Below are positions 5,602 to 64,000 of a DNA stretch of 64,000 bases, piece after piece. Position 1 is the stretch's first letter; the number at the start of each line of letters is the position of its first letter. The stretch covers positions 444 to 64,443 of the forward strand of contig CANRXB010000012.1 of the NCBI GenBank assembly GCA_947643715.1. The letters run 5' to 3'. A model generated the notes under the pieces. That model had not been told where the DNA came from and ran no database searches. It worked only from the letters and a program-made list of their open reading frames with translations. The stretch is from an uncultured bacterium. Its GTDB lineage: Bacteria > Bacillota > Clostridia > Oscillospirales > Oscillospiraceae. A program made the position numbers and the translations under genes.

Positions 5602-5615
5602 AGGGAAGGATGGGC

Positions 5616-6227: not shown

Positions 6228-6288
6228 GCGGACCCACACCGCCGGATCCGATCCGGTGGAACTACTTAGGATGAAGGAGCGATGAGCT

Positions 6289-7575: not shown

Positions 7576-7592
7576 GATCAGGCGCCATAGAC

Positions 7593-7628
7593 AAGACCGC
7601 CTTGCCGACGAAGCAAGGCGGTCTTTTT
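7593..7628 (+). terminator. Intrinsic terminator
   Basis: Stem AAGACCGCCTTGC/GCAAGGCGGTCTT followed by a T run. Confidence 0.75.
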
Positions 7629-7676
7629 CTCAACAGACGGTCGTGGCCCTGTGCTACTGTGGTCAGGACGCGCAGC

Positions 7677-12435: not shown

Positions 12436-13973
12436 GCGGGCCGACCTCCCTTCTCCATCCGCTTCGCTCCGGCCATGTACAGGCCGAGCTCTTGGACGTC
12501 CGTCTGTTTCGGGTCGAACTCGCCTACGATCTCGCCCTCATACATCACCAGGATGCGGTCGGACAGGTTCATCACCTCGTCCAGCTCCAAGCTGACCAGG
12601 AGTACCGCCCTGCCCTTGTCCCGCTCCGCCACGAGCTGGCTGTGGATATGCTCGATCGCGCCCACGTCCAGCCCGCGGGTGGGCTGGACCGCCACGACCA
12701 GGGACTTCTCCCGATCCAGCTCCCGGGCGATGATGGCCTTTTGCTGGTTGCCGCCGGACATGGACCGGGCGACGGTCACCGGCCCCTGCCCGGAACGCAC
12801 GTCGTACTGCTCGATCAGCCGCTGGGCGTACTCCCGCGCCGCGCCTTTATCGATGAAGCCGCCATGCTGGAACCGGGGCTCCCTGAACCGCTGGAGGACC
12901 ATGTTCTGCTCCAGCGTGAGGTCCAGCACCAGGCCATGCTTGTGGCGGTCCTCGGGGATATGGCTCATATCGCTGCCCCGCCGGCGGATGGAGGCGTGGG
13001 AGATGTCCTTCCCGCACAGGACCGCCGTGCCGCCGGAGCTTTTTTCCAGGCCCGTCAGCCCATGGATCAGCTCGGTCTGGCCGTTGCCGTCGATACCGGC
13101 GATGCAAAGGATCTCGCCCGCCCGCACATCGAAGCTCACATGGTCCACCGCGTCGCGCTTATGGGCCTTGGACGGGACACAGAAGTCCCGCAGGGACAGC
13201 ACCACCTCGCCGGGAACGGCAGGCGCTTTTTTCACCTCTAGCTGCACGGAACGGCCCACCATCATATCGGACAGGGCCTGTTTGTCCGTATCCTTGGTAT
13301 CCACCGTGCCGATGCACTTGCCCTTGCGCAGCACGGTGACCCGGTCGGACACCGCCATGATCTCGTTGAGCTTGTGGGAGATGAACAGGATGGACTTGCC
13401 CTCCTTCGCGAACTCCTTCATGGTGGCCATCAGCTCGTCGATCTCCTGGGGCGTGAGCACGGCGGTGGGTTCATCGAAGATGAGGATCTCGTTGTCCCGG
13501 TACAGCATCTTGAGGATCTCCACGCGCTGCTGCATCCCCACGGTGATGTCCTCCACCTTGGCGTCCAGATCCACCTTCAGGCCGTAGCGCTGGGACAGGG
13601 CCTCCACCTTGGCCCGAGCCTGCTTTTTTTGCAAAAAGCCCGCCCTGGTGGTCTCCGCACCCAAGATGATGTTGTCCAGCACGGTGAACACGTCGATGAG
13701 CTTGAAATGCTGATGGACCATGCCGATGCCCAGGGCCGTGGCGTCGTTGGGGTCGTCGATCTTCACTTCCCTGCCATCCTTCTTGATCGTTCCTGCCTCC
13801 GGCTGGTACAGGCCGAACAATACGCTCATCAGCGTGGACTTGCCCGCGCCGTTCTCCCCCAGCAGGGCATGGATCTCTCCCCTGCGAAGCTGTAACGTGA
13901 TGTCGTCGTTGGCGATGATGCCGGGGAACTCCTTCGTGATGTGGAGCATCTCGATGACGTTTTCCGCTGCCAT
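12432..13973 (-). CDS. Tandem-domain ABC ATPase (CUT2/NupA-like)
   Basis: GENGAGKS, FDEPTAVLTPQE, SMSGGNQQK, QPTRGLDVGA. Confidence 0.95.
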   Translation of the reverse strand: MAAENVIEMLHITKEFPGIIANDDITLQLRRGEIHALLGENGAGKSTLMSVLFGLYQPEAGTIKKDGREVKIDDPNDATALGIGMVHQHFKLIDVFTVLDNIILGAETTRAGFLQKKQARAKVEALSQRYGLKVDLDAKVEDITVGMQQRVEILKMLYRDNEILIFDEPTAVLTPQEIDELMATMKEFAKEGKSILFISHKLNEIMAVSDRVTVLRKGKCIGTVDTKDTDKQALSDMMVGRSVQLEVKKAPAVPGEVVLSLRDFCVPSKAHKRDAVDHVSFDVRAGEILCIAGIDGNGQTELIHGLTGLEKSSGGTAVLCGKDISHASIRRRGSDMSHIPEDRHKHGLVLDLTLEQNMVLQRFREPRFQHGGFIDKGAAREYAQRLIEQYDVRSGQGPVTVARSMSGGNQQKAIIARELDREKSLVVAVQPTRGLDVGAIEHIHSQLVAERDKGRAVLLVSLELDEVMNLSDRILVMYEGEIVGEFDPKQTDVQELGLYMAGAKRMEKGGRPA

Positions 13974-49980: not shown

Positions 49981-50808
49981 CTACGGCAGGAAGCCCTCGA
50001 AGATGGAGGCCACCCCCGCCTTGTCCAGCATCTCCATGGTCTGCCGGTCCCTGACCGTCCAGCCCACCTCGTGGACGCCATACAGCGCCCGCATCAGCCG
50101 CAGGCCCACATTGCCCCTGTCCTGCCATTTGTAGGCGATGAAATCCGGGCGGGTGAACGCGGTGGTGAGTAGCTGGGTGAGCATGAACCGCACCGGCAGG
50201 GACAGGCCATGCACCTCGCTGTCCTTGAGGAAGTCCTGGCTGAGCTGGCCCCGGAGGACATGGGGATATCCCTCCTTCAGCCGCAGCAGCACACCTGGAT
50301 GGAACGACTCCAGGCAATAGGTCCCGTTCCAGCCCTCCAGAGCCGCCATCACAGCGTCGGTGAGGGCAGCGGCATTGCCGCGCTCCACCTTCAGCTCGAT
50401 GACCAAAGGCGTCCTCCCCTCGAACAGCGCCAGCACGTCCCGGAACAGCGGTATGGTCTCCTGCGTCCCCAGGAGGGGATGCTCCCTCAGATCGGCTGCG
50501 GTCAGATCCTCGATGCGGACATCCACACCGCACAGCCGTTCCAGATCGCTGTCGTGGACCACCGCCAGCTCTCCGTCCGCCATGAGATGGACGTCCAGTT
50601 CTGCGCCGAAGCCGGACTCGACGGCGCGCCTGAACGCGGTCATCGAGTTCTCCGGCACGCCCAGGGCCATGTCATGGAGCCCCCTGTGTGCGAACCGCAC
50701 CCCCTCCATCGCCTCCCATCCAGGCTGGCCCCGCCTGGGCCGGAGCAGCAGGCACCACGCTCCCAACGCGCCCAAACAGCCCGCGCCCACCTTCACGATC
50801 GTTTTCAT
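49981..50808 (-). CDS. Glycerophosphodiester phosphodiesterase family protein, membrane-anchored
   Basis: N-terminal hydrophobic helix; FAHRGLH, PENSMTAF, ELDVHL, VVHD, IELK. Confidence 0.9.
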   Translation of the reverse strand: MKTIVKVGAGCLGALGAWCLLLRPRRGQPGWEAMEGVRFAHRGLHDMALGVPENSMTAFRRAVESGFGAELDVHLMADGELAVVHDSDLERLCGVDVRIEDLTAADLREHPLLGTQETIPLFRDVLALFEGRTPLVIELKVERGNAAALTDAVMAALEGWNGTYCLESFHPGVLLRLKEGYPHVLRGQLSQDFLKDSEVHGLSLPVRFMLTQLLTTAFTRPDFIAYKWQDRGNVGLRLMRALYGVHEVGWTVRDRQTMEMLDKAGVASIFEGFLP

Positions 50809-50832
50809 CCGCGCATCTCCTTTATCTATCGC

Positions 50833-52176
50833 TCAATCGTCCATGTCCTCGAACGCGTCCAGCCCGTGCTTCATCTCCGCCTTGCTGTCGCCGTGGCGGA
50901 CGAACAGCATGGTGACGAAGCTCATCGTCACGAAGAACGCGGCATAGGGGAACAGCACCTGATAGCCGATCTCCTTCATCAGCGTGCCCGCCAGTACGGG
51001 CGTGACCACCTGGGCCGCCATGGACGCGGTGTAATAATAGCCGGTGAACTTGCCCACGTCGGAGCCCTTGCACATCTCCACCACCATGGGCAGGGAATTG
51101 ACGTTGATGGCGGCCCAGGCCAGGCCCACCAGCGCGAACGCCACATACATGGGCGGTGTGATGGTATGGGCGTTCCAGGTGAGCAGGAAGCCCGAGGCGA
51201 AACAGACCGCCAGCAAGATCACTCCCGCCTGGATGGTCCGCTTCCGGCCGAACCTGGACGCCACGATGCCGATCGGGATATACGATACGATAGCGCCCAC
51301 CGTGGCCACCATGAGGCAGGTATTGGTCCCGCCGATGCCCTCCCCCATCACCTCGGACACGTAGGTGGAGAACCATGTGGTGACGCCGTTGTACCCGATA
51401 TACCACAGTGCGATGGAGGCCAGCAGGAACACCAGGCTCTTTTTCACCGGGCCCGGCAGCACCTCGCTGCCGCTGCCGTCGCTCTCGGCCAGGTTCCACT
51501 CCGGGTGCCTCTTTTCCAAAGCTTGGTTCTCCTCCGCCAGCTTCGGCTCCCGGATGGCGATCAGCAGCACGATCACCGCCACCAGCATGATGCCCCCCAC
51601 GATGAGGAACAGCGGCTGATAATCCACATGCTCCATGCCGCGGGTCTTTTCAGCCGGATAGAGCAGCACGCTCACGCCCAGATAGAGCACGCCGCCCACC
51701 GCGCCCATCAGGTTGATGATGGCGTTGCCCTTGGATCGCAGGGGCTTCGGGGTCACGTCCGGCATGAGGGCCACCGCGGGAGAACGATAGGTGCCCATGG
51801 CGATGAGCAGCAGCCCCAGCACGATGACGAAGGAGACCAGCTTGAAGGGAGCGGCCTGCTCGTGATAGCTGTTGTCCAAAACGGGCAGGACGTTCATCAG
51901 GATCACCGCTCCGGCGGTCCCTGCCAGGATATACGGCGTGCGCCGGCCCAGCTTCGATCTGGTCCTGTCGGACAGGCCGCCAAAAAGCGGCAGCAGGAAC
52001 AGGGCCAATATGTTGTCCGACGCCATGATGACGCCGGTGAAGGACTCGTCCATGTGGAAGGTCCTCTGGAGGATCAGCGGGACCAGATTGTCATACATCT
52101 GCCAAAACGAGCAGATCGACAGGAACGCCAGGCCCACCAGTATCGTGCGTTTGTTGTTCAGCTTCATCTCGTCCAT
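50833..52176 (-). CDS. MFS transporter (GPH/SLC45 glycoside:cation symporter type)
   Basis: LSDRTRSKLGRRTPY, RSPAVALMPD, GKFTGYYYTASM; start set at ATG 52176. Confidence 0.88.
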   Translation of the reverse strand: MDEMKLNNKRTILVGLAFLSICSFWQMYDNLVPLILQRTFHMDESFTGVIMASDNILALFLLPLFGGLSDRTRSKLGRRTPYILAGTAGAVILMNVLPVLDNSYHEQAAPFKLVSFVIVLGLLLIAMGTYRSPAVALMPDVTPKPLRSKGNAIINLMGAVGGVLYLGVSVLLYPAEKTRGMEHVDYQPLFLIVGGIMLVAVIVLLIAIREPKLAEENQALEKRHPEWNLAESDGSGSEVLPGPVKKSLVFLLASIALWYIGYNGVTTWFSTYVSEVMGEGIGGTNTCLMVATVGAIVSYIPIGIVASRFGRKRTIQAGVILLAVCFASGFLLTWNAHTITPPMYVAFALVGLAWAAINVNSLPMVVEMCKGSDVGKFTGYYYTASMAAQVVTPVLAGTLMKEIGYQVLFPYAAFFVTMSFVTMLFVRHGDSKAEMKHGLDAFEDMDD

Positions 52177-52220
52177 GTCCACACCCTCTTTTCTTTATCA
52201 GTCATGCCCGCGCCCGGGCG

Positions 52221-53063
52221 TCAGGGGCCGGTCTCGCCGGCGGCCCCTCCGGCACTTTTTTCCGCCCTCTCCTCCTCCCAGGCCCGGTGGAGCGCGGCGA
52301 TGTCCTCGAACACCCAGGTCGGCTCCACCTCGCTGCTCTCCAGGTCGGCCAGCGTCCCCTCGCCCGACAGGACGAACGCGGTATCGATCCCCGCGTTGAC
52401 GCCGGCCGCGATGTCGGTGTACAGCCTGTCCCCGATCATCACCGTCTTTTCCGGCGCGACGCCTGCCCGTTCCATGGCCAGCCGCGCCATGGCAGGCTGG
52501 GGCTTCCCGATCACGCGCGGCCTGCGCCCCGTCGCCCGGAACAGCATCTCGCACACGCTGCCGCAATCCGGCACCGAACCGTACCACGTCGGACAGACCC
52601 AGTCCGGGTTCGCGGCGATGAAGTCCACGCCCCGGCCCAGCAGGATGCAGGCGTCCTCCAGCTTCTGGAACGTCAGCTCGGTATCGAACCCTATGATCAA
52701 GCATTCCACCGCGTCCTCCCGCCTATCCGTCACGGGTATCCCCGCCGATCGGAGCTGGCCCTTGAAGCTTTCCGTGCCGAAGGCATAGCACAGCCGGTAA
52801 GGCGGGCGGGACTGCAGGTCGGCGATGAGGGCGTCCACCGAAGTGACGAAATGCTCCCGCTCCGCCCGGATGCCCATCACGGCCAGCTTCCGGATATAGT
52901 CGTCCGCCGACTTAGAGGAGTTGTTCGTGAGGAAGCGATAGCGGCCCCCGCCCGCCCGCACCGCACCCAGGAACGGGATCGTCCACGGGAACAGGTCCCG
53001 ATCCAAATAGATGGTGCCGTCCATATCCAGCAGGAACAGCTCCTTTTCTCCCAGCCGCGCCAT
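52221..53063 (-). CDS. HAD-IIA (NagD-like) phosphatase
   Basis: DMDGTIY, LTNNS, IGKPQ, IGDRLYTDI. Confidence 0.92.
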   Translation of the reverse strand: MARLGEKELFLLDMDGTIYLDRDLFPWTIPFLGAVRAGGGRYRFLTNNSSKSADDYIRKLAVMGIRAEREHFVTSVDALIADLQSRPPYRLCYAFGTESFKGQLRSAGIPVTDRREDAVECLIIGFDTELTFQKLEDACILLGRGVDFIAANPDWVCPTWYGSVPDCGSVCEMLFRATGRRPRVIGKPQPAMARLAMERAGVAPEKTVMIGDRLYTDIAAGVNAGIDTAFVLSGEGTLADLESSEVEPTWVFEDIAALHRAWEEERAEKSAGGAAGETGP

Positions 53064-53120
53064 CCGCTCACACCTTTCGGTAAAAGTCCCCTTCTCTTTG
53101 ACGCAAAGAAGGAAAAGATC

Positions 53121-53172
53121 TTTATTTCCATTTATTGAAATTTATTTTAACACACTGCACCCCTTTTGTCCA
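53121..53172 (-). promoter_or_regulatory. Promoter of the HAD-MFS-GDPD operon with phased AATAAA repeats
   Basis: TGGACA-N17-TAAAAT; three AATAAA copies at 10-bp spacing over and downstream of the -10. Confidence 0.6.
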
Positions 53173-53315
53173 TTCGTTTTTGTAAAAATCAACGAAACTT
53201 CGCTCCAGCCTCCACCGCTTCCCATCATTTTCAACATCTCCCCGGCGATGTGCCCTTCCTCGGGCGCACGCGGCCACCGGACGGCATGGAGCGGCGGCTT
53301 CGCCATGGACCGCAC

Positions 53316-53355
53316 AAAAAGGACCGGGGCGAGCCGAACGGCCCGCCCCGGTCCT
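53316..53355 (-). terminator. Minus-strand terminator upstream of sigK
   Basis: AGGACCGGGGCG/CGCCCCGGTCCT stem plus T run on the - strand. Confidence 0.7.
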
Positions 53356-53441
53356 CCCCGCCTCCGACGGTCTGAGCTGTCCGGAGGTTCGAACGACAGC
53401 TCATGACGCGGCCGCCGGCCCATCCGGGCCACTTTTCTAAA

Positions 53442-53469
53442 ATACGGACACGCCGCTTCCGCATACATT
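53442..53469 (+). promoter_or_regulatory. Mother-cell sigE-type promoter of sigK
   Basis: ATA-N17-CATACATT, matching ATA-N16/18-CATACAHT, just upstream of the GGAGG RBS. Confidence 0.7.
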
Positions 53470-53488
53470 TTCGATGGAGGTGGTATCC

Positions 53489-53685
53489 ATGTGGACGGCA
53501 TGGCTGTTATTGACATTGAACGGGTTGTTCTTCACCCTTCGTTTGGCAGGGAACACGGGTTCCTTCCCTCGGGCCCTCACCCGCGAAGAGGAGCAGGACT
53601 GCCTGCAGCGGATGGCGGAGGGCGACTCTGACGCCCGGGACATGCTCATCGAGCACAACCTGCGGCTGGTGGCTCATATCGTTAA
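53489..53685 (+). CDS. sigK: Pro-sigma-K, 5' fragment (codons 1-65) of a split gene
   Basis: Hydrophobic pro-sequence, SFPRAL, LIEHNLRLVAHIV, then a premature stop from element sequence. Confidence 0.92.
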
Positions 53686-55313
53686 AAACTGATAAAGCGG
53701 AAGGAAGCTGTTCGGCGGTCAAAAACGGCCCTCACAGGGCCGCCGCATCTCAAGTGGACGTCCAGATGGATCTCCTCTCTCGTACTGCCCTTTTTCACCA
53801 CGATATGGTCCAATATCGTGGTGACGAGGGAGGGATCGATGCCGTTTTGGAAGGTCAGTTCTCGCTCCAGGACGGCGCGGATCTCCTCCGTCCTGGCGGC
53901 GGTCCCTCTGCTCTTTTCCGCCTCCATCCGAAGCGCCGCCCGCTTTTCTTCCAAGGCTTCGGCCTGCCGGTTGAAGCTGTCGTTGCGCTGCTTGAACTCC
54001 GCCATGGTGACGATGCCTTCGATGCTCATCTCCAGCAGGCGGTCTTTTTTTGCCCGGATCGCAGCCAGGTCCTCCTCGATCCGGCGGATATCCTGGGTAT
54101 AGTCGCGCTCCTCCGGGACGGCCCGGAGAACGCTCATCACCGCGCCGATGATGGCCTGTTTGTCCTGAGCGAGCCTGTCGAAGATCTCGGCCATGATCCG
54201 ATCCAGCTCCTTGGTGCGCAGATGAGGGGCCGTACACCCCGCCCTCCCCCGGCTGCGGTACTCCCGGCATTGCCACGTCTCTGTCGTCCCTTTGGCGCTC
54301 TTGATGGCCTGCCGGTGGAACCGGGTCCCGTGCGCCTCACATACGATCTTACCGCTGTAGGGATATCGGTCATGGAACTGCGCCCCGCTCTGGTGGGACT
54401 TCATCTGCCGGCTCCTCTGTTTGTACAGCGCGTTCGCCCGGTCCCACAGCTCCTCGGACACGATCGCCGGGACGGACGGATCGGGGTACATCACCCACTC
54501 GCTCTCGTCTAGGAATACCTTCCGCTTGCTGCGGTAGTCCACCGTCTGGGACTTGTTGGCGCAGTACCAGCCCTTGTATTTGGGGTTGCACAGGATGTTC
54601 CGGATGGTCAGCACGTTGAAGGCGTTGCCCCTGCGGCTGGTGAAGCCCTCGTCCAGCAGCGTCCGGGAGATGCGCCGTATCCCCATCTGCCGGTTGGCGT
54701 AGAGGTCGAAGATCCGCCGCACCACCTGGGCCTCCTCTTCGTCGATGGTCAGCACACAGTCCTTCTTGTCATACCCCCAGATCCGGTCGTTGCCCAGCAC
54801 ATGCCCGTTCTTGATGGCCTGCCGGAAGCCGAACTTCAGCCGCTCGGACAGCTTGCGCACCTCGTCCTGGGCCACCCCGGCCATGACCACCAGGCGGAAC
54901 TCGCTGTCGCTGTCCAGGGTGTTGATGTTGTCGTTCTGGAACAGCACCCCCACGTCGTGCTCCAGCAGCTCCTGGGTGTACTTGATGCTGTCCAGGGTGG
55001 AGCGGGAAAAGCGGGATATCTCCTTCGTGATGATGAAGTCGAAGCACCCCGCTTTGGCGTCCGCTATCATCCGCAAGAAGCTGTCCCGCTTTTTGGTGCT
55101 GGTTCCGGAGATGCCCTCGTCGATGTATCCCGGCACGAATATCCAGTCGCGCTTGCTCCGGATCAGCTCGGTGTAGTATTGGACCTGGTTCCCCAGGCTG
55201 TTGATCTGCTCGTCCTTGTCGGTGGAGACCCTGGCATAGAAGGTCACCCGCAGAGGAAGCTCGAAAATGGTCCTCCCCTTCCGCAGCTCATTTCGTATCT
55301 CAAGGATATCCAC
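53682..55313 (-). CDS. Large serine recombinase (SpoIVCA-like)
   Basis: FYARVST catalytic motif, KEISRFSR, recombinase domain, Zn-ribbon CEAHG...WQC...C, coiled coil; GTG start after AGGAGG. Confidence 0.95.
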   Translation of the reverse strand: MDILEIRNELRKGRTIFELPLRVTFYARVSTDKDEQINSLGNQVQYYTELIRSKRDWIFVPGYIDEGISGTSTKKRDSFLRMIADAKAGCFDFIITKEISRFSRSTLDSIKYTQELLEHDVGVLFQNDNINTLDSDSEFRLVVMAGVAQDEVRKLSERLKFGFRQAIKNGHVLGNDRIWGYDKKDCVLTIDEEEAQVVRRIFDLYANRQMGIRRISRTLLDEGFTSRRGNAFNVLTIRNILCNPKYKGWYCANKSQTVDYRSKRKVFLDESEWVMYPDPSVPAIVSEELWDRANALYKQRSRQMKSHQSGAQFHDRYPYSGKIVCEAHGTRFHRQAIKSAKGTTETWQCREYRSRGRAGCTAPHLRTKELDRIMAEIFDRLAQDKQAIIGAVMSVLRAVPEERDYTQDIRRIEEDLAAIRAKKDRLLEMSIEGIVTMAEFKQRNDSFNRQAEALEEKRAALRMEAEKSRGTAARTEEIRAVLERELTFQNGIDPSLVTTILDHIVVKKGSTREEIHLDVHLRCGGPVRAVFDRRTASFRFISF

Positions 55314-55482
55314 CCTGCTCCGCCTCCTTCGCCGGGCACACAGGATACCGGAAAAACGCAGGGACATCCATCCCAGAACGCACCAGATCCATCGCGCCCA
55401 GATAGGTGGCCCTCGACAAAAGCCCGCGGGCGTAGAGCGCTTCCAAAAGGACGCCCATCAGCTCCTGCTGCGCACGTTCCAT
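55300..55482 (-). CDS. Small protein (60 aa) overlapping the recombinase start; candidate directionality factor
   Basis: GAGGTG RBS 7 nt upstream; overlaps the recombinase GTG; function is inference. Confidence 0.6.
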   Translation of the reverse strand: MERAQQELMGVLLEALYARGLLSRATYLGAMDLVRSGMDVPAFFRYPVCPAKEAEQGGYP

Positions 55483-55619
55483 GCTGCATCACCTCATCCA
55501 TGGATATGTGGCGGCATGAGGGAAGATTCCAGACGATCCGGGACCGATGTGAGGCGCCTCCCCGTTTCCGGGCGCATCCGACACGGCGCGCATCCCCTCG
55601 CATGACCCGAGAAGAACGA

Positions 55620-55648
55620 TTGCTATTTTAGACAGTTTCTGGTATACT
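55620..55648 (+). promoter_or_regulatory. sigA promoter of the skin cargo operon
   Basis: TTGCTA-N17-TATACT with an extended TG. Confidence 0.65.
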
Positions 55649-55698
55649 ATCATCTCCAGTGTTTATCAGGAATGACGACACGAGAAAGGAGAACGACC

Positions 55699-57756
55699 AT
55701 GGATAAAAGATTTGGACCGCTGTTCACCCCGTGGAAGATCGGAAACTGTGAGATCAAGAACCGGGTGGTGCTCACCTCTATGGGAGGCACGGACCTGCTG
55801 GGCTGGATGGAGAAGAACCATTTCGACCGGGCCGGGGCCCGATTCATCCTGGAGGCGGCCCGAAACGATGTGGGGCTGGTGCTGCCCGGCTGCCAGCCGG
55901 TGTACAACCCCATGTTCGGCCAGTGGCTGCACAAAAACAAGAAGATGTACCGGGATCTGGCCGCCTGGATGCCCGAGTTCCACAAGACCGGGGCCAAGCT
56001 GTTCGTCCAGCTCACCGCGGGCTTCGGCCGCTCCTTCACCATCAGCTCCATGATGGAGATGCTGTACACCAACCCCGCTCTGCGGGCGCTGTCCAGACCC
56101 TTCATGGATCTGGACAAGATCACCGCCACCGCCAGCCCCTCCCCCAACCGCTGGTCGGACAAGGTGCCCTCCCGCGAGATGACGGTGGCGGAGATCCGGG
56201 AGTTCGTGGACGCCTTCGCCCAGACCGCCAAGCTCCTCCAGGACGCCGGGGTGGACGGAGTGGAGGTCCACGCCGTCCACGAGGGCTACCTGCTGGACCA
56301 GTTCACCTTGAAGTATGTCAACAAGCGCACGGATCAGTACGGCGGCTCCTTCGAGAACCGCTACCGCTTCCCGGTGGAGATCGTCCAGGCCATCAAAGCG
56401 GCCTGCGGCCGGGACTTCCCCGTCTCCCTGCGGTACAGCGTGGTGTCCAAGACCAAGGGCTTCCGCCAGGGCGCCCTCCCTGGGGAGGACTTCGTGGAGG
56501 CCGGCCGTGACATGGAGGAATCGGAGCGAGCGGCGAAGTACCTCCAGGACGCGGGGTACGACATGCTCAATTGCGACAACGGCACCTACGACGCCTGGTA
56601 TTGGGCCCATCCGCCCATCTACATGCCGGAGAACTGCAACCTGGCCGACGTGGAGCACATCAAGAAGTTCGTGGACATCCCGGTGGTGTGCGCCGGGCGG
56701 CTGGATCCCCGGACGGCGGCCGAGTCCATCGAGGCGGGCAGACTGGACGGCGCGGGCTTCGCCCGGCAGTTCCTGGCCGACCCGGCCTGGGTCACCAAGC
56801 TGATGGAGGGCCGGGAGGCGGACATCCGTCCTTGCATCCTGTGCCACAACGGCTGCTTCAACATGTCCCACTACGAGGGCGTCCCCAACGACCAGGACCT
56901 GTACGACAGCCTCCACATGGCCCGGTGCGCCGTCAATGCGGAGATGATGCAGTGGGACCGGCACCATATCGACAAAGCCTTCTCCCCCAAGCGGGTACAT
57001 ATCATCGGCGGGGGCCTGGGCGGCATGGAGGCGGCCCGGGTACTGAAGCTCCGGGGCCACGAACCGATCGTCTACGAGAAGAGCGGCCGGCTGGGCGGGG
57101 CGTTCATCGCCGCCGGGGCGGAGTCCTACAAGGGCAAGCTCAGGGACCTGCTGGCCTGGTATGAACGGCAGATGGAGCAATTGGGGATCGAGATCCATCT
57201 CGGCACGGAGATCGGAGATGTGAGCCGGTTCGGGACGGATCAGGTGATCGTGGCCACCGGCGCGGCCCCCATCGTGCTCCGGGGCATCCAAGGCCACGAG
57301 CGGATGATAGAGGCCATCGACTTCCTGCTGGGGAACGAGACCGTGGGCGAGCGGGTGGCCGTCGTGGGCGGCGGGCTCACCGGCTGCGAGATCGCCTACG
57401 AGCTGGCCCTCCAGGGCAAGCATCCCGTCATCATCGAGATGAAGAACGATCTGGTGGCCCAAAAGGGCGTGTGCCTGGCCAACAGCTCCTATCTCCGGGA
57501 GTGGTTCGCCCTGCACGGCGTGCCCATCCACCTGGAGACCACCTTGACCGCTGTCCACGAGGACAAGGTGGTCTGCCGGGACAAGGACGGCAGGACGGTG
57601 GAGATCCCCTGCGACAGCGTCATCAGCTCGGTGGGCTACGTGCCCCGGCCTTTGGCGGGCAAGGGCCGCAACATCCACTTCGTGGGTGACTGCAAGCAGG
57701 TGGGCAACGTCAAGACCGTGATCTGGGGTGCCTACGAGGCGGCCATGAAGATCTGA
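55699..57756 (+). CDS. Old-yellow-enzyme class Fe-S flavoenzyme (enoate reductase / BaiCD-H-like)
   Basis: EVHAVHEGYLLDQF, YGGSFENRYRF, CILCHNGC Fe-S motif, IIGGGLGGMEAA FAD/NAD site; start set at ATG 55699. Confidence 0.9.
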   Translation: MDKRFGPLFTPWKIGNCEIKNRVVLTSMGGTDLLGWMEKNHFDRAGARFILEAARNDVGLVLPGCQPVYNPMFGQWLHKNKKMYRDLAAWMPEFHKTGAKLFVQLTAGFGRSFTISSMMEMLYTNPALRALSRPFMDLDKITATASPSPNRWSDKVPSREMTVAEIREFVDAFAQTAKLLQDAGVDGVEVHAVHEGYLLDQFTLKYVNKRTDQYGGSFENRYRFPVEIVQAIKAACGRDFPVSLRYSVVSKTKGFRQGALPGEDFVEAGRDMEESERAAKYLQDAGYDMLNCDNGTYDAWYWAHPPIYMPENCNLADVEHIKKFVDIPVVCAGRLDPRTAAESIEAGRLDGAGFARQFLADPAWVTKLMEGREADIRPCILCHNGCFNMSHYEGVPNDQDLYDSLHMARCAVNAEMMQWDRHHIDKAFSPKRVHIIGGGLGGMEAARVLKLRGHEPIVYEKSGRLGGAFIAAGAESYKGKLRDLLAWYERQMEQLGIEIHLGTEIGDVSRFGTDQVIVATGAAPIVLRGIQGHERMIEAIDFLLGNETVGERVAVVGGGLTGCEIAYELALQGKHPVIIEMKNDLVAQKGVCLANSSYLREWFALHGVPIHLETTLTAVHEDKVVCRDKDGRTVEIPCDSVISSVGYVPRPLAGKGRNIHFVGDCKQVGNVKTVIWGAYEAAMKI

Positions 57757-57766
57757 GGAGGAAGCC

Positions 57767-59050
57767 ATGAGCGTAAAGATGAAACTGACCGCCGAGCAAC
57801 AGGCCATCCTGGACGGCAGCCAGGGGGAGACGCTGGCCAAGGTGATGGAGACGCTGGTGCGCTATGGCGAGCTGTTCGGGGCGGACTCCATGGCGCCCGT
57901 CACCAGCCAGTACAACCACCTGGTCACCTCCTTCGGGCTGAAGGCCCTGGGGCCGGTGTACGATCTGATGGACAAACTGATCGCGGAGGGCGCGGCGTCC
58001 AAGCAGCCGTTCTCCGCCGACCCCCGGCCGGTGGACAAGAACGTGCCCAGCTCTTTTTTGCAGGACTTCGTGTTCCGGAACTTCATGTACACCAAGCAGG
58101 ACTTTTACGAGGACCAGCTCAGCAAGCTGGGCCTCATGGACCGGGACGCTTTCACCTGCGCCTGCTATCTGGACCAGGTGGGCAACACCCCGAAGGAGGG
58201 GGACGTCCTGTCCTGGTCGGAGTCCTCCGCCGTGGTGTATGCCAACTCGGTGCTGGGGGCCCGGTGCAACCGCAACTCGGGCATCATCGACCTGATGGGC
58301 TCGGTGGTGGGGCACGTGCCCTACTTCGGCCTGCTCACCGACGAGGGGCGCAAGGCCACCTGGATCGTGGAGGTCAAGACCACCAAGAAGCCGGAGGCCC
58401 AGCTCCTGGGCTCCGCCATCGGCATGAAGGTGATGGAGGACGTGCCCTACCTCGTGGGGCTGGACCGGTGGCTGGGGACGCTGGACGACGCGGCCAGGAC
58501 CTACCTCAAGGACTTCGGCGCGGCCACCGCCTCCAACGGCGCGGTGGGCCTGTACCATGTGGAGGGCATCACCCCGGAGGCCGTCCGGCAGGGCCGGGAG
58601 CTGGTGGCGGAGGACGCCCAGGTATATGTGGTGGACGACGCGGAGCTCCAGCGGGTATACGACAGCTACCCTGTGATGTGGAAGGACAAGGGCGCGAGAC
58701 CGAAGCTGTGCTTCATGGGCTGTCCCCACATGAGCCTGGAGCAGCTCACCACCTGGACGGAGCGGGTGGAGCAGGGCCTGAGAGATTCGGGGCGGAAAAA
58801 GGTGGCCATCCCCACCGTGTTCACCGCCGCCCCCGCGGTCATCGAGCAGTTCCAGGCCACGCCCTATGGGGAGCGGCTGAAAAAGACGGGGGTCGTGCTC
58901 AGCTACATCTGCCCGCTGATGTATATGAACAACCCCTTGAGCGGCAAGATGCCCGTCATCACCTCCAGCAACAAGCTGCGCACCTATACCACCGCAAGGT
59001 ACTACACAGACGACGAGATCCTCGTCCAGATCACGAAAGGGGGCGACTGA
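57767..59050 (+). CDS. Aconitase X catalytic subunit (DUF521)
   Basis: FTCACY, WSESSAVVYANSVLGARCNR, GAVGLYHVEGITPE, FMGCPH, ICP, TSSNKLRTY. Confidence 0.88.
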   Translation: MSVKMKLTAEQQAILDGSQGETLAKVMETLVRYGELFGADSMAPVTSQYNHLVTSFGLKALGPVYDLMDKLIAEGAASKQPFSADPRPVDKNVPSSFLQDFVFRNFMYTKQDFYEDQLSKLGLMDRDAFTCACYLDQVGNTPKEGDVLSWSESSAVVYANSVLGARCNRNSGIIDLMGSVVGHVPYFGLLTDEGRKATWIVEVKTTKKPEAQLLGSAIGMKVMEDVPYLVGLDRWLGTLDDAARTYLKDFGAATASNGAVGLYHVEGITPEAVRQGRELVAEDAQVYVVDDAELQRVYDSYPVMWKDKGARPKLCFMGCPHMSLEQLTTWTERVEQGLRDSGRKKVAIPTVFTAAPAVIEQFQATPYGERLKKTGVVLSYICPLMYMNNPLSGKMPVITSSNKLRTYTTARYYTDDEILVQITKGGD

Positions 59051-59051
59051 G

Positions 59052-59501
59052 ATGCGCCAGTTCCAAGGCCGGGTGGTATCTCCCGGCAAGCTCACCGCCA
59101 AGGCTCTGGTGTCCCACGGGGGGCTGAACACCCTGGCCTCCTTCCAGAAGGCCCTGCAGTTCGGAGACAAGAAGGCCACCTGCGGCGACCAGAACAACCC
59201 CGACCTCTACGGCAAGCAGATGGCCGGGAAGGCCCTGTGCCTGCCCCGGACCATCGGCTCCACCACCGGAGGGCTGGTGCTGTACTGCGCCTGTTCCATG
59301 GGGCGCCAGCCGGCGTGCCTGTTGTTCTCCGAGCCCATCGACTCCCTGGCGGCCGCCGGGGCGGTGCTGTCCGACGTCTGGCTGGAGGGGGAACACACCT
59401 CCATGCCGGTGGTGGACAGTCTGGGCGAGGAGTTCCTGGACTTCGTCCAGGACGGCATGACCATCAACGTCCTGTCGGACGGCGTGGTCCAGGTCATCTG
59501 A
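59052..59501 (+). CDS. Aconitase X swivel subunit (DUF126)
   Basis: GRVVSPG, MAGKALCLPRTIGSTTG, AAGAVL, MPVVD. Confidence 0.85.
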   Translation: MRQFQGRVVSPGKLTAKALVSHGGLNTLASFQKALQFGDKKATCGDQNNPDLYGKQMAGKALCLPRTIGSTTGGLVLYCACSMGRQPACLLFSEPIDSLAAAGAVLSDVWLEGEHTSMPVVDSLGEEFLDFVQDGMTINVLSDGVVQVI

Positions 59502-59513
59502 CGGAGGGCGCGC

Positions 59514-60272
59514 ATGACGATCTTATCTCGATTGAACGGCCCGGCCGTGTATGCCGTGTGCGGCGGCATCGTGGCCTTCGTGGCCGTGGTCTGCGTCGTG
59601 TTCATGGTCCGGGCCTGGCGGGCCGGCGTGGCCCTGGGCATGGACAAGACCAAGATGCGCCGGGTGGTCACCGCCAGCATCACCTTCTCCGCCCTGCCCA
59701 GCGTGGGGATCCTCTTGGGGGTCATCGCCCTGTCGGGCAGCCTGGGCACTCCCTGGCCCTGGCTGCGGCTGAGCGTGGTGGGCGCCCTCCACTACGAGAC
59801 GCAGGTGGCCCAGGCCGCCGCCGAGCAGGTGGGCATGAGCAGCCTCTCCGCCGCTGAGATGACGCCTCGGGCCTTCACCACCATCGCCCTGCTCATGAGC
59901 GTATGTATCATGTGGGGGATGCTGCTGTCCGCCCTGTTCAACAAGCGGTATCTCAAGAAGCTGGGCGCAGGCACGGGCTCCGGCGGCGGGGCCGTGGCGG
60001 GCTTCGGCGACAAGGCCATGACCGCCATGTTCATCGGCCTCATCTGCGCCTATGTGGGCAGCTATATCGGCGGCTTCGTGTCCGGGGAAGGGCCGTTCAC
60101 CTTCGCCGGGGACTGGACGCCGCTGGCAGTGGCCGGGGTGTCCGGCCTGACCATGGCCGGGTGCGTCTGGCTGTCGGAGAAAAAGGGCATGGCCTGGCTG
60201 GAGAGCTTCTCCATCGCGGGCAGCATGCTGCTGGGCATGGCCGCGGCGGTGCTGCTGCGGCTGTGGCTGTAG
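59514..60272 (+). CDS. DUF5058 family membrane protein
   Basis: LGTPWPWLRLSVVGALHYE motif; multiple TM helices. Confidence 0.8.
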   Translation: MTILSRLNGPAVYAVCGGIVAFVAVVCVVFMVRAWRAGVALGMDKTKMRRVVTASITFSALPSVGILLGVIALSGSLGTPWPWLRLSVVGALHYETQVAQAAAEQVGMSSLSAAEMTPRAFTTIALLMSVCIMWGMLLSALFNKRYLKKLGAGTGSGGGAVAGFGDKAMTAMFIGLICAYVGSYIGGFVSGEGPFTFAGDWTPLAVAGVSGLTMAGCVWLSEKKGMAWLESFSIAGSMLLGMAAAVLLRLWL

Positions 60273-60287
60273 GAAGGGGGCCATCCA

Positions 60288-60980
60288 ATGAACGAACGAG
60301 ACGGACAGGCGGCATTCGACCGCTATAACGAGCAGACCCACCTCATCGGCCAGGTGGTGAGCGTCGCCACCCTGGTCTTGCTCATCGGCGCTCCCTTCGT
60401 ACTGGGCGCCATCCTGGGCGACATGCCCGACGTCGGGGCGGTCGCCCGGAGCTTCCTCTCCGTGGGCCTGGTGTGGATGGTCAGCGGAGTGGCGGAATAC
60501 CTCATCTATACCCCTATGCTGGGGGCGGGAGGGAGCTATCTGGCCTTCATCACCGGCAACCTCATCAACATGAAGATCCCCTGCGCCATCAGCGCCCGGG
60601 ACATGGTGGGCGCCAAGACGGGGACGGCGGAGAACGAGGTGATCTCCACGCTGTCCATCGCGGCGTCCTCCCTGGTGACCATCCTGGTGCTGGCTTTGGG
60701 CGTGCTGCTGCTGGTCCCGCTCCAGCCCATCCTCCAGAGCGAGGTGCTCCAGCCCGCTTTCGCCAACGTGGTCCCCGCGCTGTTCGGGGCCATGGCATAC
60801 AAGTATTTCCGGGGGAACATGAAGATCGCCGTCACACCGCTGGTGGTCATGAGCCTGCTGTTCATGCTGGTCCCCAGCCTCACCGGGTCCACCAGCTTCA
60901 TGATCGTCCCCAGCGGAGCTATGGCCATCGCCATCACCTGGGTCCTATACCGACATGAAAGGAAGTCGAACGACAAATGA
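60288..60980 (+). CDS. Membrane protein that typically partners DUF5058 (putative transporter subunit)
   Basis: YTPMLGAGGSYLAFITGNLINMKIPCA; TM-rich. Confidence 0.75.
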   Translation: MNERDGQAAFDRYNEQTHLIGQVVSVATLVLLIGAPFVLGAILGDMPDVGAVARSFLSVGLVWMVSGVAEYLIYTPMLGAGGSYLAFITGNLINMKIPCAISARDMVGAKTGTAENEVISTLSIAASSLVTILVLALGVLLLVPLQPILQSEVLQPAFANVVPALFGAMAYKYFRGNMKIAVTPLVVMSLLFMLVPSLTGSTSFMIVPSGAMAIAITWVLYRHERKSNDK

Positions 60981-62557
60981 AGAAAAGACATAAGCGCGCG
61001 CTGGCCATACTGGCCGCAAAAAAGGCGGGGGGATATCTCCTAGACGCGGCGGTGGCCCGGAAAATGCCGCCCAAGCGGGTCGAACGGCCTGAGCCCCCCA
61101 AGCAGTGCCCCTATGCCAAAGCTGCCGCCACCGCTCTGACCGCAGTCGGGGTGGCCGCAGGAGCCGCCCTGGGCGTGGCGCTGGCCCGCACCGCCCTGAC
61201 CCCGAAGAAACGATCCGAATATGTCCCCGCCCCGGACGGCCGGGCCATGGACTATGCCCAGAAGCTGTCCGCCATGGTCCAATGCGACACGACCTCCCAC
61301 GCCGGCGTGGCGGAAACAGAAAAGTTCCTGGCCTTCCACAAGGAGCTGGAGCGGCTGTTCCCCCTGGTCCACCGGGATCTGGAAAAGACCGTCATCGACG
61401 GCAACCTGCTCTTCCGCTGGAAGGGCAGGACGGACGCGGACCCCATCGTCCTCATGAGCCACCAGGACGTGGTGCCCGCCGAGGGAGAATGGCTCCACCC
61501 GCCCTTCTCCGGCGCCATCGTGGATGGCAAGGTGTGGGGCCGGGGCGCTTTCGACACGAAAGCCTCCCTCATGGCCTTCTTCCAGGGCGTGGAGGAGCTG
61601 TTGGCCGAGGGCTATGTGCCTGAGTGCGACGTGTATCTGGCCTCCTCCTGCACCGAGGAGTGGGCGGGAGACGGGGCCCCCAAGCTGGTGGCCGAGCTCC
61701 AGCGCCGGAACGTGCGTCCCTTCCTGGTCATCGACGAGGGCGGCGGCGTGATCACCGACCCCATCGGCGGCGTCAAGGGCAATTTCGCCATGGTGGGCGT
61801 GTTCGAGAAGGGCAAGGCGGACGTGCGCTTCACCGCCCGCAGCTCCGGCGGACACGCCAGCGCCCCAGGCAAGGGCACCCCCATCGCCCGGCTGTCGGCT
61901 TTCGTCAACGAGATGGAGACCAAGCCCCCCTTCCGGAAGAAGCTCCTGCCGGAAGTGAAGGCCATGTTCAGGCGCCTGTCCCCCTACGCCCCCTTCCACC
62001 TGCGGCTGGTGATGGGCAACCTGTGGCTGTTCGGCCCGGTGATGAAGAAGGTCATGCCTGCCGTCTCCGCCCAAGCCGCGGCCATGCTCCAGACCACCAT
62101 CGCCTTCACCATGCAGTCCGGGTCCGACGCCTGCAACGTCTTGCCCCAGCAGGCCAGCGTCAGCGCCAATATGCGTTTCATCCCTCACCAGGGGGAGCGG
62201 GAGAGCCTGGACCTGGTCCGGGAACGGGCGGCGAAATACGGCTTGGAGATGGAGATCATGCACTCCAGCGACTACACCAGGCCCGTGGACATCAAGGGCA
62301 AGGCGTTCCGCCAGGTGGAGCAGGTCATCGAGGCCACCTTCCCCGGACTGCCGGTGTGTCCTTACGTGATGACCGGCGCCACCGACGCCAGCTTCTATCA
62401 GGCCATCTGTGACGATTGCGTCCGCTTCGCCCCGGTCGTGGCCGGGCCGGAGCAGATGAAGGGGATGCACGGCCTGAACGAGACCATGGGCGTGGATTGT
62501 CTGCCCAAAGCGGTCGATTTCTATAAGGACCTGATCCGCGCCCAGGAGAGACGGTGA
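60977..62557 (+). CDS. M20/M25/M40 family metallo-peptidase/amidohydrolase with N-terminal basic extension and TM anchor
   Basis: SHQDVVP, GRGAFDTK, CTEEW, IDEGG, GGHAS, HGLNE. Confidence 0.9.
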   Translation: MKKRHKRALAILAAKKAGGYLLDAAVARKMPPKRVERPEPPKQCPYAKAAATALTAVGVAAGAALGVALARTALTPKKRSEYVPAPDGRAMDYAQKLSAMVQCDTTSHAGVAETEKFLAFHKELERLFPLVHRDLEKTVIDGNLLFRWKGRTDADPIVLMSHQDVVPAEGEWLHPPFSGAIVDGKVWGRGAFDTKASLMAFFQGVEELLAEGYVPECDVYLASSCTEEWAGDGAPKLVAELQRRNVRPFLVIDEGGGVITDPIGGVKGNFAMVGVFEKGKADVRFTARSSGGHASAPGKGTPIARLSAFVNEMETKPPFRKKLLPEVKAMFRRLSPYAPFHLRLVMGNLWLFGPVMKKVMPAVSAQAAAMLQTTIAFTMQSGSDACNVLPQQASVSANMRFIPHQGERESLDLVRERAAKYGLEMEIMHSSDYTRPVDIKGKAFRQVEQVIEATFPGLPVCPYVMTGATDASFYQAICDDCVRFAPVVAGPEQMKGMHGLNETMGVDCLPKAVDFYKDLIRAQERR

Positions 62558-62587
62558 GCGCTCCGGCATAGGTCCGCGCGGACACAA

Positions 62588-62637
62588 GGGCTCATACCAC
62601 GATCGTTCGCAGCCCTAAACGATCGCGGTATGAGCCC
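62588..62637. other. Long hairpin near the right end of element 1
   Basis: 20-bp arms with one mismatch (GGGCTCATACC[A/G]CGATCGTT), 10-nt loop, no U tract. Confidence 0.6.
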
Positions 62638-62734
62638 TAATCTGTGTGGCGTATCAAAGATGGCGCATACGATCCGGTGGTCCCTGAGAGGCCGCTTTCG
62701 ACCAGGAAACATCTTCCCTTTGCTTCACCCGTCT

Positions 62735-62872
62735 AAGAAGTATTATACCCCCAACGGCGACCAGGACGATCTAATCTCTATCGGGACCATCGGCCTGATC
62801 AAAGGCGTGTCCACGTTCAAGGCAGATAAAAACGTGCGGCTCGCCACCTATGCCAGCCGGTGCATCGAGAAT
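62735..62872 (+). CDS. sigK: Sigma-K, middle fragment (46 codons, region 2) of a split gene
   Basis: KKYYTPNGDQDDLISIGTIGLIKGVSTFKADKNVRLATYASRCIEN, then TIHSQ instead of the expected EILM. Confidence 0.92.
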
Positions 62873-62967
62873 ACTATCCACTCGCAACGGCTCAAAAGGC
62901 CCTTGATGTGGGCAATCGTACATACTTTGGCGAAAAATGGCGTACGTTCGGCCACACATCGGACCGC

Positions 62968-63486
62968 ATGAAAATAATGGTCCTCCATACTCCCACGGGC
63001 GTTATCTACGCACCTCTTTACATTCACAGTTTCCAGCTTGTCCAACCTCACACGCTGGTGGAGGCGGAAAAGTTCAACATCCAATACACCGATCCCTCTC
63101 AAATCCACAATACGCCGGACAAGCTCCGCTGGTACAGATACAGCCAGGGTTTGCGGCAAAAGGATGTGGCGAAGTACGCTGGGATAGACCGCACCACATA
63201 CTCCAGCTATGAAGAAATTGGGCGGGACTATTATCCCATTGAAACCATGCGGAAAATTGCGGAGCTGTTCTCCGTCCCTGTCACAAGGCTCCTGGATGAT
63301 TTCAACCTGTTTCTCTATCACGGCCAGGGCCAGCAAATCAGGCAGGCCCGAGCACAGAAAAGCATGACACAAAAAGAGTACGCAAAATACCTTGGCGTCC
63401 CGTTTGGAACCTTGCAGCAATGGGAACAGGAGCAGAAAGCAGTATCCAAAAGCGCTTGGAAAAGTCTAAATGGGTTTAAGGAATAA
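62968..63486 (+). CDS. XRE-family regulator with two HTH domains
   Basis: LRQKDVAKYAGIDRTTYSSYE and MTQKEYAKYLGVPFGTLQQWE; ATG 62968 overlaps the stop of the interrupted sigK frame (ATGA). Confidence 0.8.
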   Translation: MKIMVLHTPTGVIYAPLYIHSFQLVQPHTLVEAEKFNIQYTDPSQIHNTPDKLRWYRYSQGLRQKDVAKYAGIDRTTYSSYEEIGRDYYPIETMRKIAELFSVPVTRLLDDFNLFLYHGQGQQIRQARAQKSMTQKEYAKYLGVPFGTLQQWEQEQKAVSKSAWKSLNGFKE

Positions 63487-63507
63487 TTGTGGCCCTTGTT
63501 TCAAAAA

Positions 63508-63546
63508 GGAAGCCGTCAAATCACTCGTGGATTTGGCGGCTTCCCT
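63508..63546. terminator. Terminator between convergent element genes
   Basis: GGAAGCCGTCAAATC/GATTTGGCGGCTTCC stem with an A run on the left. Confidence 0.7.
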
Positions 63547-63573
63547 TGATGTATTTCAAATTAGCCAGATCAC

Positions 63574-63918
63574 TTAGAATCTCAGCGGTGCTTCATTTGA
63601 GCATAAGATATGCCCATCTTTCTGTGATAAAACTTTTTGATTAGCCACCACCCTTACACACATTAGCAAATCATCAATGTTCTTCGGTCTTGCGGAACAC
63701 CTTTTTGCCAACTTTTTAGCAAGTTGACGTTTCACATCGTCTACACCTCTCGGAACTTCCTGCCGACCTGAACTCACAATATAAGCATCCAAAATTTGAA
63801 GATTTTTCAATAGGAAAGAAACCATTTCATTACCTTCGATATTCTTCAAAGTTTCCTCAATTTGTTCATAAGCCCTTTTTATTACAGTTCCTTTTAGTTC
63901 AATTAAATGGCATTTCAT
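63574..63918 (-). CDS. Hypothetical protein (114 aa), AT-rich
   Basis: Only sizeable ORF in the AT-rich end; no family recognised; start uncertain. Confidence 0.45.
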   Translation of the reverse strand: MKCHLIELKGTVIKRAYEQIEETLKNIEGNEMVSFLLKNLQILDAYIVSSGRQEVPRGVDDVKRQLAKKLAKRCSARPKNIDDLLMCVRVVANQKVLSQKDGHILCSNEAPLRF

Positions 63919-64000
63919 GTTGATTTCATCATAGCAAAGAAAATCACACTTTTTTATCCCTTCCCGAACATTTGGTATAATACCACGATCAACAGTGACA

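Follow-up and report, generated by a model that had tools for sequence, protein, structure and literature searches.

A sigK-intervening element of an Oscillospiraceae gut bacterium that probably belongs to the skin type and carries a captured six-gene operon

The stretch of DNA analyzed here (hereafter, the window) comprises 64,000 nucleotides from an uncultured Oscillospiraceae gut bacterium and corresponds to positions 444-64443 of contig CANRXB010000012.1 (C12 in our numbering), which belongs to a genome of 2.63 Mb with a GC content of 62%. In this window, the sporulation gene sigK is cut at codon 66 by an element of 9,048 bp (about 53689-62736). We consider it likely that this is a compact skin-type integrative element carrying a single operon cassette captured horizontally. 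This reading draws on the anatomy and boundaries of the element, the in-frame restoration of sigK, purifying selection, the foreign relationships of the cassette and, across a family of related elements, the turnover of cargo and the horizontal spread of the recombinase module.

The pieces of sigK were located by tblastn using the Bacillus subtilis SigK sequence as the query; on the plus strand, SigK residues ~ 7-69 matched positions 53498-53689 and residues ~ 59-115 matched positions 62708-62899. The 5' segment (53489-53688, plus strand; residues 1-66) begins with an ATG at 53489 behind a ggagg ribosome-binding site (RBS) and matches the intact SigK of a genome of the same genus (G015). The reading frame stops after ...LVAHIVK at 53688 and picks up as KYYTPNGDQDD... 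at 62737 in the middle segment (62737-62872, plus strand; residues 67-111, KYYTPNG...RCIEN), which was assigned from tblastn, the reading frame and the match to G015. A second break follows after ...RCIEN at 62872, and the remainder of the gene (EILMYFRS... to the stop codon) is found on contig C65, 150 nt from the contig end. Joined together, the three pieces encode a product that shares 95% identity with the SigK of G015, which is uninterrupted, and both joints (...AHIVKKYYTPNG... and ...RCIENEILMYF...) are exactly as in that protein. Precise deletion in silico thus restores an in-frame sigK at both joints, the property by which skin-type elements are recognized. None of the pieces contains a stop codon, and the ratio of nonsynonymous to synonymous substitution rates (dN/dS) between the joined gene and the intact sigK of G015 is 0.044. 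Spo0A, SpoIVA and SpoVAC are also encoded in the genome, and the host therefore looks sporulation-competent.

At its left end, the element encodes a large serine recombinase (LSR) of 543 aa on the minus strand (53682-55313), which contains the Pfam domains Resolvase, Recombinase and Zn_ribbon_recom, matches the integrase family PHROG 95 (E = 3e-113) and scores far under the NCBIfam cut-offs of named serine-recombinase families. Alignment with relatives indicates that the gene probably starts at the GTG at 55313 rather than at the ATG at 55367. Among relatives that are 59-81% identical, the catalytic YARVST motif is invariant, and dN/dS values of 0.13-0.20 indicate purifying selection. The stop codon of the recombinase (53682-53684) is situated inside sigK codons; hence, the gene spans the att site. 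Alignments of att sequences place the crossover zones at 53683-53688 (attL, GTT|AAAAA) and 62734-62739 (attR, TC|TAAGAAG). With the intact attB of G015 as the reference, an alignment of attL and attR from this genome and from three relatives left no common stretch except the AA of the first Lys codon, and such a core fits the central dinucleotide of a serine integrase. Any joint from 53682/62734 to 53688/62740 yields an identical SigK protein, the joined junction (attB) reads in silico ...CATATCGTTAA|GAAGTATTAT..., and the att arms match those of the relatives. The two ends of the element (within 53660-53750 and 62670-62737) are imperfect inverted repeats of ~ 63 nt that both look like the 3' end of a recombinase gene, with a local alignment score of 48 compared with 20 ± 3.3 (maximum of 35) for shuffled sequences. 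The right repeat (62670-62733, plus strand), which aligns locally over 63 nt with the left end read in reverse complement, is a copy of a recombinase 3' end (..GGP, a stop and EAAFDQETSSLCFTRLRS); it matches the 3' terminus of the recombinase gene in a related locus (L038) with 96% identity over 26 nt.

Searches for relatives of the recombinase in species-representative genomes retrieved 268 stretches, and the comparisons described below were carried out on the best 80 of them (66-83% identical). In about 74 of these 80 loci, an open reading frame (ORF) of 53-70 aa with a conserved protein pattern (consensus MESAQRELxxVLL...GLIS..TY..A.DLVHS..DFP.LFRYPVCLTKEA) lies upstream of the recombinase gene; in the window, the matching ORF encodes 60 aa and overlaps the LSR start (55300-55482, minus strand). 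With dN/dS values of about 0.31-0.35, its product is a candidate recombination directionality factor or regulator. An AF2 model of the protein, built from an alignment of 50 sequences, is a two-helix hairpin (pLDDT 76); the fold search with this model gave no PDB match better than E = 2, a result that is uninformative on a possible role as a directionality factor. Approximately 22 nt upstream of the start of the small ORF, a conserved CATATCCAT box (55500-55508, minus strand) was identified from the consensus over 74 loci. The promoter consensus of the module in these loci reads ggcATTTTtt-N13-CATATcCATgaA-N-GAGGTGATG, where GAGGTGATG precedes the small ORF across loci, and a GGCATTTTT motif, often the tail of a terminator hairpin, is located ~ 13 nt further upstream of the box. 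CATA -10 boxes are a hallmark common to sigma-E and sigma-K promoters (PMC3789822), so the CATATCCAT box is a candidate -10 element of the mother-cell (sigma-E/K) type and a hint that the recombinase module may be expressed in the mother cell. Taken together, the open sigK pieces, the recombinase with its catalytic motif, the intact small ORF and the sporulation genes are consistent with a working system.

The rest of the element is occupied by the cargo cassette (55609-62557, plus strand), which consists of a promoter and six plus-strand genes and forms one blastn block with a metagenome contig, L112. The sigma-A-like promoter (55620-55648, plus strand; TTGCTA-17-(TG)TATACT) was found by a consensus scan, with 9 of 12 positions matching and an extended -10 TG; sigma-70-type sites of this quality occur here at 2 per 500 nt compared with 0.4 expected from shuffled sequences. 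The first gene (55699-57756) encodes an Fe-S flavoenzyme of the enoate reductase/BaiCD/BilR family with OYE-like FMN and FAD/NAD domains (Pfam Oxidored_FMN and Pyr_redox_2), which shares only the domain architecture with the named members, scoring 343 bits for BaiCD (cut-off 825) and 335 bits for the long form of BilR (cut-off 750) in NCBIfam. It probably starts at the ATG at 55699, behind an AAAGGAG RBS and about 40 nt downstream of the promoter, and not at 55672. It is followed by the large catalytic subunit of aconitase X (57767-59050), which is a member of Pfam AcnX and reaches 153 bits against an NCBIfam equivalog cut-off of 700, and by the small swivel subunit (59052-59501; Pfam AcnX_swivel_put). 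Two membrane proteins come next, one with a DUF5058 domain (59514-60272; E = 4e-69) and one without an assigned family, recognized as an ORF with a hydrophobic sequence (60288-60980) and kept beside DUF5058 in contigs L112, L135, L137 and L151-153. The last gene (60977-62557) encodes an M20 metallohydrolase with an N-terminal membrane anchor (Pfam Peptidase_M20 and M20_dimer; NCBIfam M20 family peptidase below the cut-off). Directly after the operon, there is a very stable hairpin (62568-62654, plus strand; arms of 21 nt, 95% complementary; -52.6 kcal/mol, z = -6.4), which has no clear U-tract, occurs nowhere else in the genome or the fetched loci, is absent from L112 and is probably a terminator or insulator ahead of the middle piece of sigK. 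Nothing credible was found in Rfam for positions 53000-64000.

An original prediction made for this region from its letters had described it as a skin element whose entire cargo is a vegetative metabolic operon, and much of this description agrees with our results. The six genes behind a sigA-like promoter are indeed tightly coupled, with intergenic gaps of 10, 1, 12, 15 and -4 nt, and the operon is placed wholly between the two att junctions, i.e., within the segment predicted to be excised. The reported lack of phage genes was likewise confirmed: in Pfam and PHROG searches with the proteins of the element, no phage structural, lysis, replication, conjugation or toxin-antitoxin genes were detected, and the integrase match was the only one obtained.

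An important question is where the cassette came from. A metagenome scan with the large AcnX subunit yielded 558 relatives, among which the trio of flavoenzyme, large and small AcnX subunits recurs often as a unit in gut metagenomes. The complete set of six is found in L112 (with protein identities of 86-94%) and in L151-153, while in several other contigs the trio of DUF5058 protein, membrane protein and M20 hydrolase is found 5-8 kb from the three-gene core. The blastn comparison of the window with L112 produced a single block (55609-62557, 6.95 kb) with 88.8% DNA identity over 6,963 nt, which extends from just upstream of the promoter to the stop codon of the M20 gene and ends sharply on both sides. 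In L112, the operon is flanked by genes for a PucR-type regulator and a radical-SAM protein on one side and by AKR, LysR and CitMHS genes on the other, and neither a recombinase nor sigK is located near it. We also considered an internal relocation of the cassette within the present genome; the L112 flanks are absent from it, so there is no sign of an original locus here. Of the 24 same-genus genomes searched, only one (G021) has the AcnX operon, as a decayed copy, and in other families of the order AcnX sequences (72-80% identical) and the three-gene core have an ordinary chromosomal setting; the occurrence of the operon outside sigK elements, in L112 and in these settings, was a point on which the original prediction had called for comparison. 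All six genes have dN/dS values of 0.12-0.25 relative to L112. The GC contents are 64.3% for the element, 65.2% for the cassette, 62.0% for the genome and 44.5% for a second element in sigK (see below), and the GC content at third codon positions (GC3) of the cassette is also host-like; since the L112 contig itself has 63% GC, the host-like composition says nothing about the length of residence. Judging from these comparisons, the cassette is a horizontal acquisition from another high-GC gut Clostridia lineage.

Two observations concern the relatives of the cassette. In L112, the PucR-type regulator and a radical-SAM activase-like gene are situated ahead of the operon (5080-7727) and were not captured with the cassette, so that the operon, once inside sigK, may lack regulation or be controlled in trans. 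The copy in G021 (locus L011 on contig C36, 495-9956) consists of an intact flavoenzyme gene, 88% identical, followed by decayed AcnX, in which the two subunits, large and small, have become fused through frameshifts and a deletion; it lies outside sigK and 5 kb downstream of a serine recombinase gene (50% identical), which is itself preceded by a DpnD/PcfM-like gene.

The codon-66 site itself is used by a whole family of elements. The LSR gene abuts a sigK fragment at codon 66 with its 3' end in 74 of the 80 loci, either beside the 5' piece and antiparallel to it, as in the window (35 loci), or beside the 3' piece and codirectional with it (39 loci). Where both ends were contained in the fetched DNA (16 loci), the elements measured 3.6-11.6 kb; at least 16 elements of this size, from many genera, share the same two-gene backbone, and in G002 the size reaches 36.8 kb. 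Within the genus, sigK is intact in 12 of the 24 genomes, including the closest one, G015; the same codon is occupied in six (including elements of 5.2 kb in G016, 7.2 kb in G024 and 36.8 kb in G002), and the classical CIEN|EIL site is occupied in two. None of the 80 loci carries the six-gene operon. The cargo is heterogeneous across elements and mostly non-phage, with examples including a LysM-GH18 enzyme, a DAO-Rieske oxidoreductase, a hybrid histidine kinase, a hybrid-cluster protein with TspO, an SLH protein, a MatE transporter, an OLD/ABC ATPase, SIR2-TPR proteins and a tyrosine integrase. One recurrent pair, made up of a membrane protein of the Fer4_5 polyferredoxin-like type (~ 285 aa) and a thioredoxin/AhpC-like protein (~ 200 aa), occupies the recombinase-distal end in 7 of 18 small elements and may be an ancestral or core accessory module. 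This pair was seen in L034 (region 2931-4513), L038, L043, L052, L062 and L103, and it is the sole cargo of the 3.6-kb element of L052.

Cargo and recombinase do not evolve in step. Some pairs of loci with 90-94% recombinase DNA identity share only 0-26% of the adjacent 3 kb, and of the 453 pairs with 80-90% identity, 330 (73%) share under 20%. The LSR has also switched its placement relative to sigK, with a minimum of 6 changes on the recombinase tree and 11 in the most parsimonious case, and the tails of recombinases of both placements overlap in sequence. L069, a tree neighbour of the LSR of the window, nevertheless has its recombinase 4.6 kb from sigK. Loci L038 and L043 have opposite placements and share 92% of their cargo, which implies that the whole interior was inverted. 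One genome pair had suggested that the arms are fixed relative to sigK and that only the recombinase moves, but this was ruled out by the wider set of loci. The inversion may have proceeded via recombination between the inverted repeats or may reflect integration in either orientation. The divergence of the module is, moreover, uncoupled from that of its hosts: in hosts whose SigK is at a dN of 0.2-0.35 from that of the present genome, the recombinases are at a dN of 0.11-0.14 from the LSR of the window, as close as those of near relatives with SigK dN of 0.04, even though SigK is by far the more constrained protein (dN/dS of 0.04 vs 0.15). Such a pattern indicates that the module moved between lineages, and the family thus behaves as a horizontally moving compact integrative element and not as a fixed organ of the host.

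Beside these results, it should be mentioned that the window contains a second interruption of sigK. At the classical CIEN|EIL position, the gene is split by the low-GC (44.5%) element, which covers window positions 62873-64000 and part of contig C65 (about 12396-12554), opens with a twin-HTH XRE-type gene (62860-63486), also contains a minus-strand gene without assignment and runs off the contig; its other end is located just 150 nt from the end of C65. A break at residue 114, as for this second element, is present in at least 8 of the 80 related loci. A sigK gene in three pieces is prone to be mis-annotated as a pseudogene, and the sporulation capacity of such metagenome-assembled genomes (MAGs) is consequently underestimated. 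Upstream of sigK, a plus-strand ORF of 859 aa (50209-52788) matches no Pfam family and was rejected as a gene, being probably an antisense artefact of high GC; it overlaps a well-supported HAD-family hydrolase gene on the minus strand (52221-53063). Long antisense ORFs (e.g., 55666-57840) abound in the high-GC DNA here, and their annotation should be avoided.

Several points weigh against the interpretation of the element as a working and mobile skin-type element. The host genome is a MAG in 93 contigs, and the recombinase of the second element was not found at any contig end of this assembly; because of this, full restoration of sigK cannot be demonstrated for this genome. The low dN/dS of sigK mostly reflects the time before insertion, the -35 part of the promoter of the recombinase module has diverged here, and it is not obvious how a backbone of two genes would be transferred between cells. 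The 60-aa protein belongs to no Pfam, NCBIfam or PHROG family and shows no sequence or fold relation to known directionality factors. Two of these points, the diverged -35 region and the missing second recombinase, also speak for a dead insertion, in which excision would have been lost or the host would no longer sporulate, leaving sigK a pseudogene and the arrangement without developmental meaning; some Oscillospiraceae are, in addition, described as non-spore-forming (bioRxiv 10.1101/2022.02.25.481979). We nevertheless find a dead insertion very unlikely, given that the three sigK pieces are open and jointly encode a protein so close to the intact orthologue, that the recombinase and small ORF are intact, that core sporulation genes are present and that the att arms match those of relatives. 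Another explanation is that the element is a reduced prophage or a remnant of an integrative conjugative element (ICE), whose mobility genes were lost in this lineage and which either kept the operon or gained it later. Some support for such an origin comes from the element of 36.8 kb in G002, at the same sigK site, which has DarB-like antirestriction, endolysin-like and weak terminase matches along with a 59% identical recombinase; further support comes from a few IMG/VR viral contigs with recombinases 57-72% identical and from the assignment of the recombinase to an integrase PHROG. However, curated phage genomes contain no recombinase above 40% identity, no phage or ICE pseudogene fragments lie between the backbone and the cassette (where only ~ 100 nt on the left and 180 nt on the right are unassigned), and the recurrence of the same two-gene backbone in compact elements of many genera means that the compact form itself propagates. 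A remnant therefore seems unlikely to us. The premise of the original prediction that characterized skin elements are prophage remnants is itself outdated, considering that the gin element is non-phage (PMC5595907) and that skin elements of 2.6-48 kb are reported to have no shared cargo (bioRxiv 10.1101/2022.02.25.481979).

The original prediction had instead regarded the element as domesticated, i.e., as an immobile host fixture, inherited vertically, retained as its excision is essential and providing a stable long-term home for the operon. Lack of transfer genes, purifying selection on the recombinase module and the host-like GC and GC3 of the cassette are all compatible with this idea, and two of its components are supported: the recombinase module is constrained, as judged from its dN/dS, and the finding in many genomes of the same recombinase module with quite different cargo at the same sigK codon is what the proposed landing pad predicts. 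The similarity in GC between cassette and host also stands as an observation, but it is matched by the 63% GC of the donor-like contig and is explained by a high-GC donor; it is no evidence of long residence. Stability and domestication were not supported by the comparison. An uninterrupted sigK in the closest relative by SigK and in 11 other genomes of the genus, absence of the operon from the other elements examined and cargo turnover between near-identical recombinases do not agree with a stable fixture, and the failure of LSR divergence to follow that of SigK points to horizontal spread. We regard vertical domestication as quite unlikely and retain the reading of a compact, horizontally moving skin-type element with a captured operon.

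According to this preferred reading, the backbone would comprise the LSR gene with its 3' end across the att site, the co-transcribed 60-aa partner, the CATA-box promoter and terminal inverted repeats of ~ 60 nt, with one captured six-gene cassette under its own sigma-A-like promoter between the backbone ends. In growing cells, the operon would be expressed from this promoter while the split sigK stays inert. Probably, the M20 hydrolase would free a hydroxy-acid-type substrate transported by the two membrane proteins, AcnX would dehydrate it and the Fe-S flavoenzyme would then reduce the C=C bond thus formed. During sporulation, the recombinase and the small protein are predicted to recombine attL and attR of the mother cell at the AA core, rejoining codons 66 and 67 in frame; the second element at codon 111 would also have to leave, and the forespore would retain the element.

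A broader proposal, which we put forward only tentatively, is that the codon-66 site may serve as a platform for cargo exchange, on which a two-gene backbone captures arbitrary chromosomal operons, flips its interior repeatedly and spreads between genera, being tolerated at no cost as only the disposable mother cell loses it. This would amount to shuffling like that of staphylococcal cassette chromosome (SCC) elements or integrons, tied to a germline-soma split, and the cargo captured elsewhere would include redox, transport, defence or cell-wall genes. Should excision be confirmed, the elements splitting sigK in abundant gut Clostridia would be not just prophage relics but vehicles that carry metabolic operons between lineages, with a recombinase protected by the need of the host to rebuild sigK. 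One backbone, many cargos and repeated switches of orientation make the family a tractable system for the acquisition of cargo and the spread of serine-recombinase islands without transfer genes, and cultured carriers of recombinase relatives appear to exist (Flintibacter muris DSM 110149, Clostridium leptum DSM 753, Intestinibacillus massiliensis and Oscillibacter sp. 1-3).

The closest known systems are the skin element of B. subtilis (recombinase SpoIVCA, Skr) and skinCd of Clostridioides difficile (CD1231 with the recombination directionality factor CD1234), which likewise interrupt sigK and restore its frame by precise deletion, and by analogy with which a small accessory gene is expected. 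The skin element of B. subtilis also carries an operon useful in vegetative cells (ars). In contrast to both, the element described here sits at codon 66 (HIVK|KYY) and not in the CIEN|EIL region, where the second element is found; it lacks phage-like genes, has a single metabolic operon as cargo, and its excision is predicted from sequence. Galperin et al. (2022) surveyed 15 genomes and described skin elements that measure 2.6-48 kb, encode 2-67 proteins and have only the recombinase in common, which was always located at the edge and variable in orientation (bioRxiv 10.1101/2022.02.25.481979); this Oscillospiraceae site, the 60-aa partner ORF, long terminal inverted repeats, cargo turnover on one backbone and a captured catabolic operon are not part of that survey. 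The gin element in gerE of Bacillus cereus ATCC 10987, described by Abe and colleagues, is a non-phage, sporulation-specific intervening element whose excision was shown experimentally and depends on the serine recombinase GirC and the small directionality factor GirX, with att inverted repeats around an AA core (PMC5595907). Our element resembles gin as a non-phage insertion in a mother-cell sporulation gene with a serine recombinase and an AA-centred att site, but the target gene is different, and gin carries three recombinases and regulator genes and no metabolic operon.

Outside sporulation, the combination of a serine recombinase module, a fixed site, interchangeable non-phage cargo and horizontal spread without its own transfer genes is reminiscent of SCC, with Ccr acting at orfX/rlmH. 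The LSR is, however, not a Ccr (137 bits for CcrC and 124 for CcrB against NCBIfam cut-offs of 900, and 75 for CcrA against 700), and SCC elements are excised independently of cell differentiation and split no essential developmental gene. In the heterocyst fdxN element of Anabaena, a serine recombinase (XisF) similarly removes an element from a gene that a terminal cell type alone requires, though in another organism and another target, and the LSR reaches only 97 bits against XisF (cut-off 375). Thus, small cargo-variable skin elements and non-phage intervening elements were already known, and what is added here is a recently captured, complete catabolic operon as cargo, a different target codon, a conserved partner ORF, long terminal repeats and comparative evidence for cargo swapping and horizontal spread.

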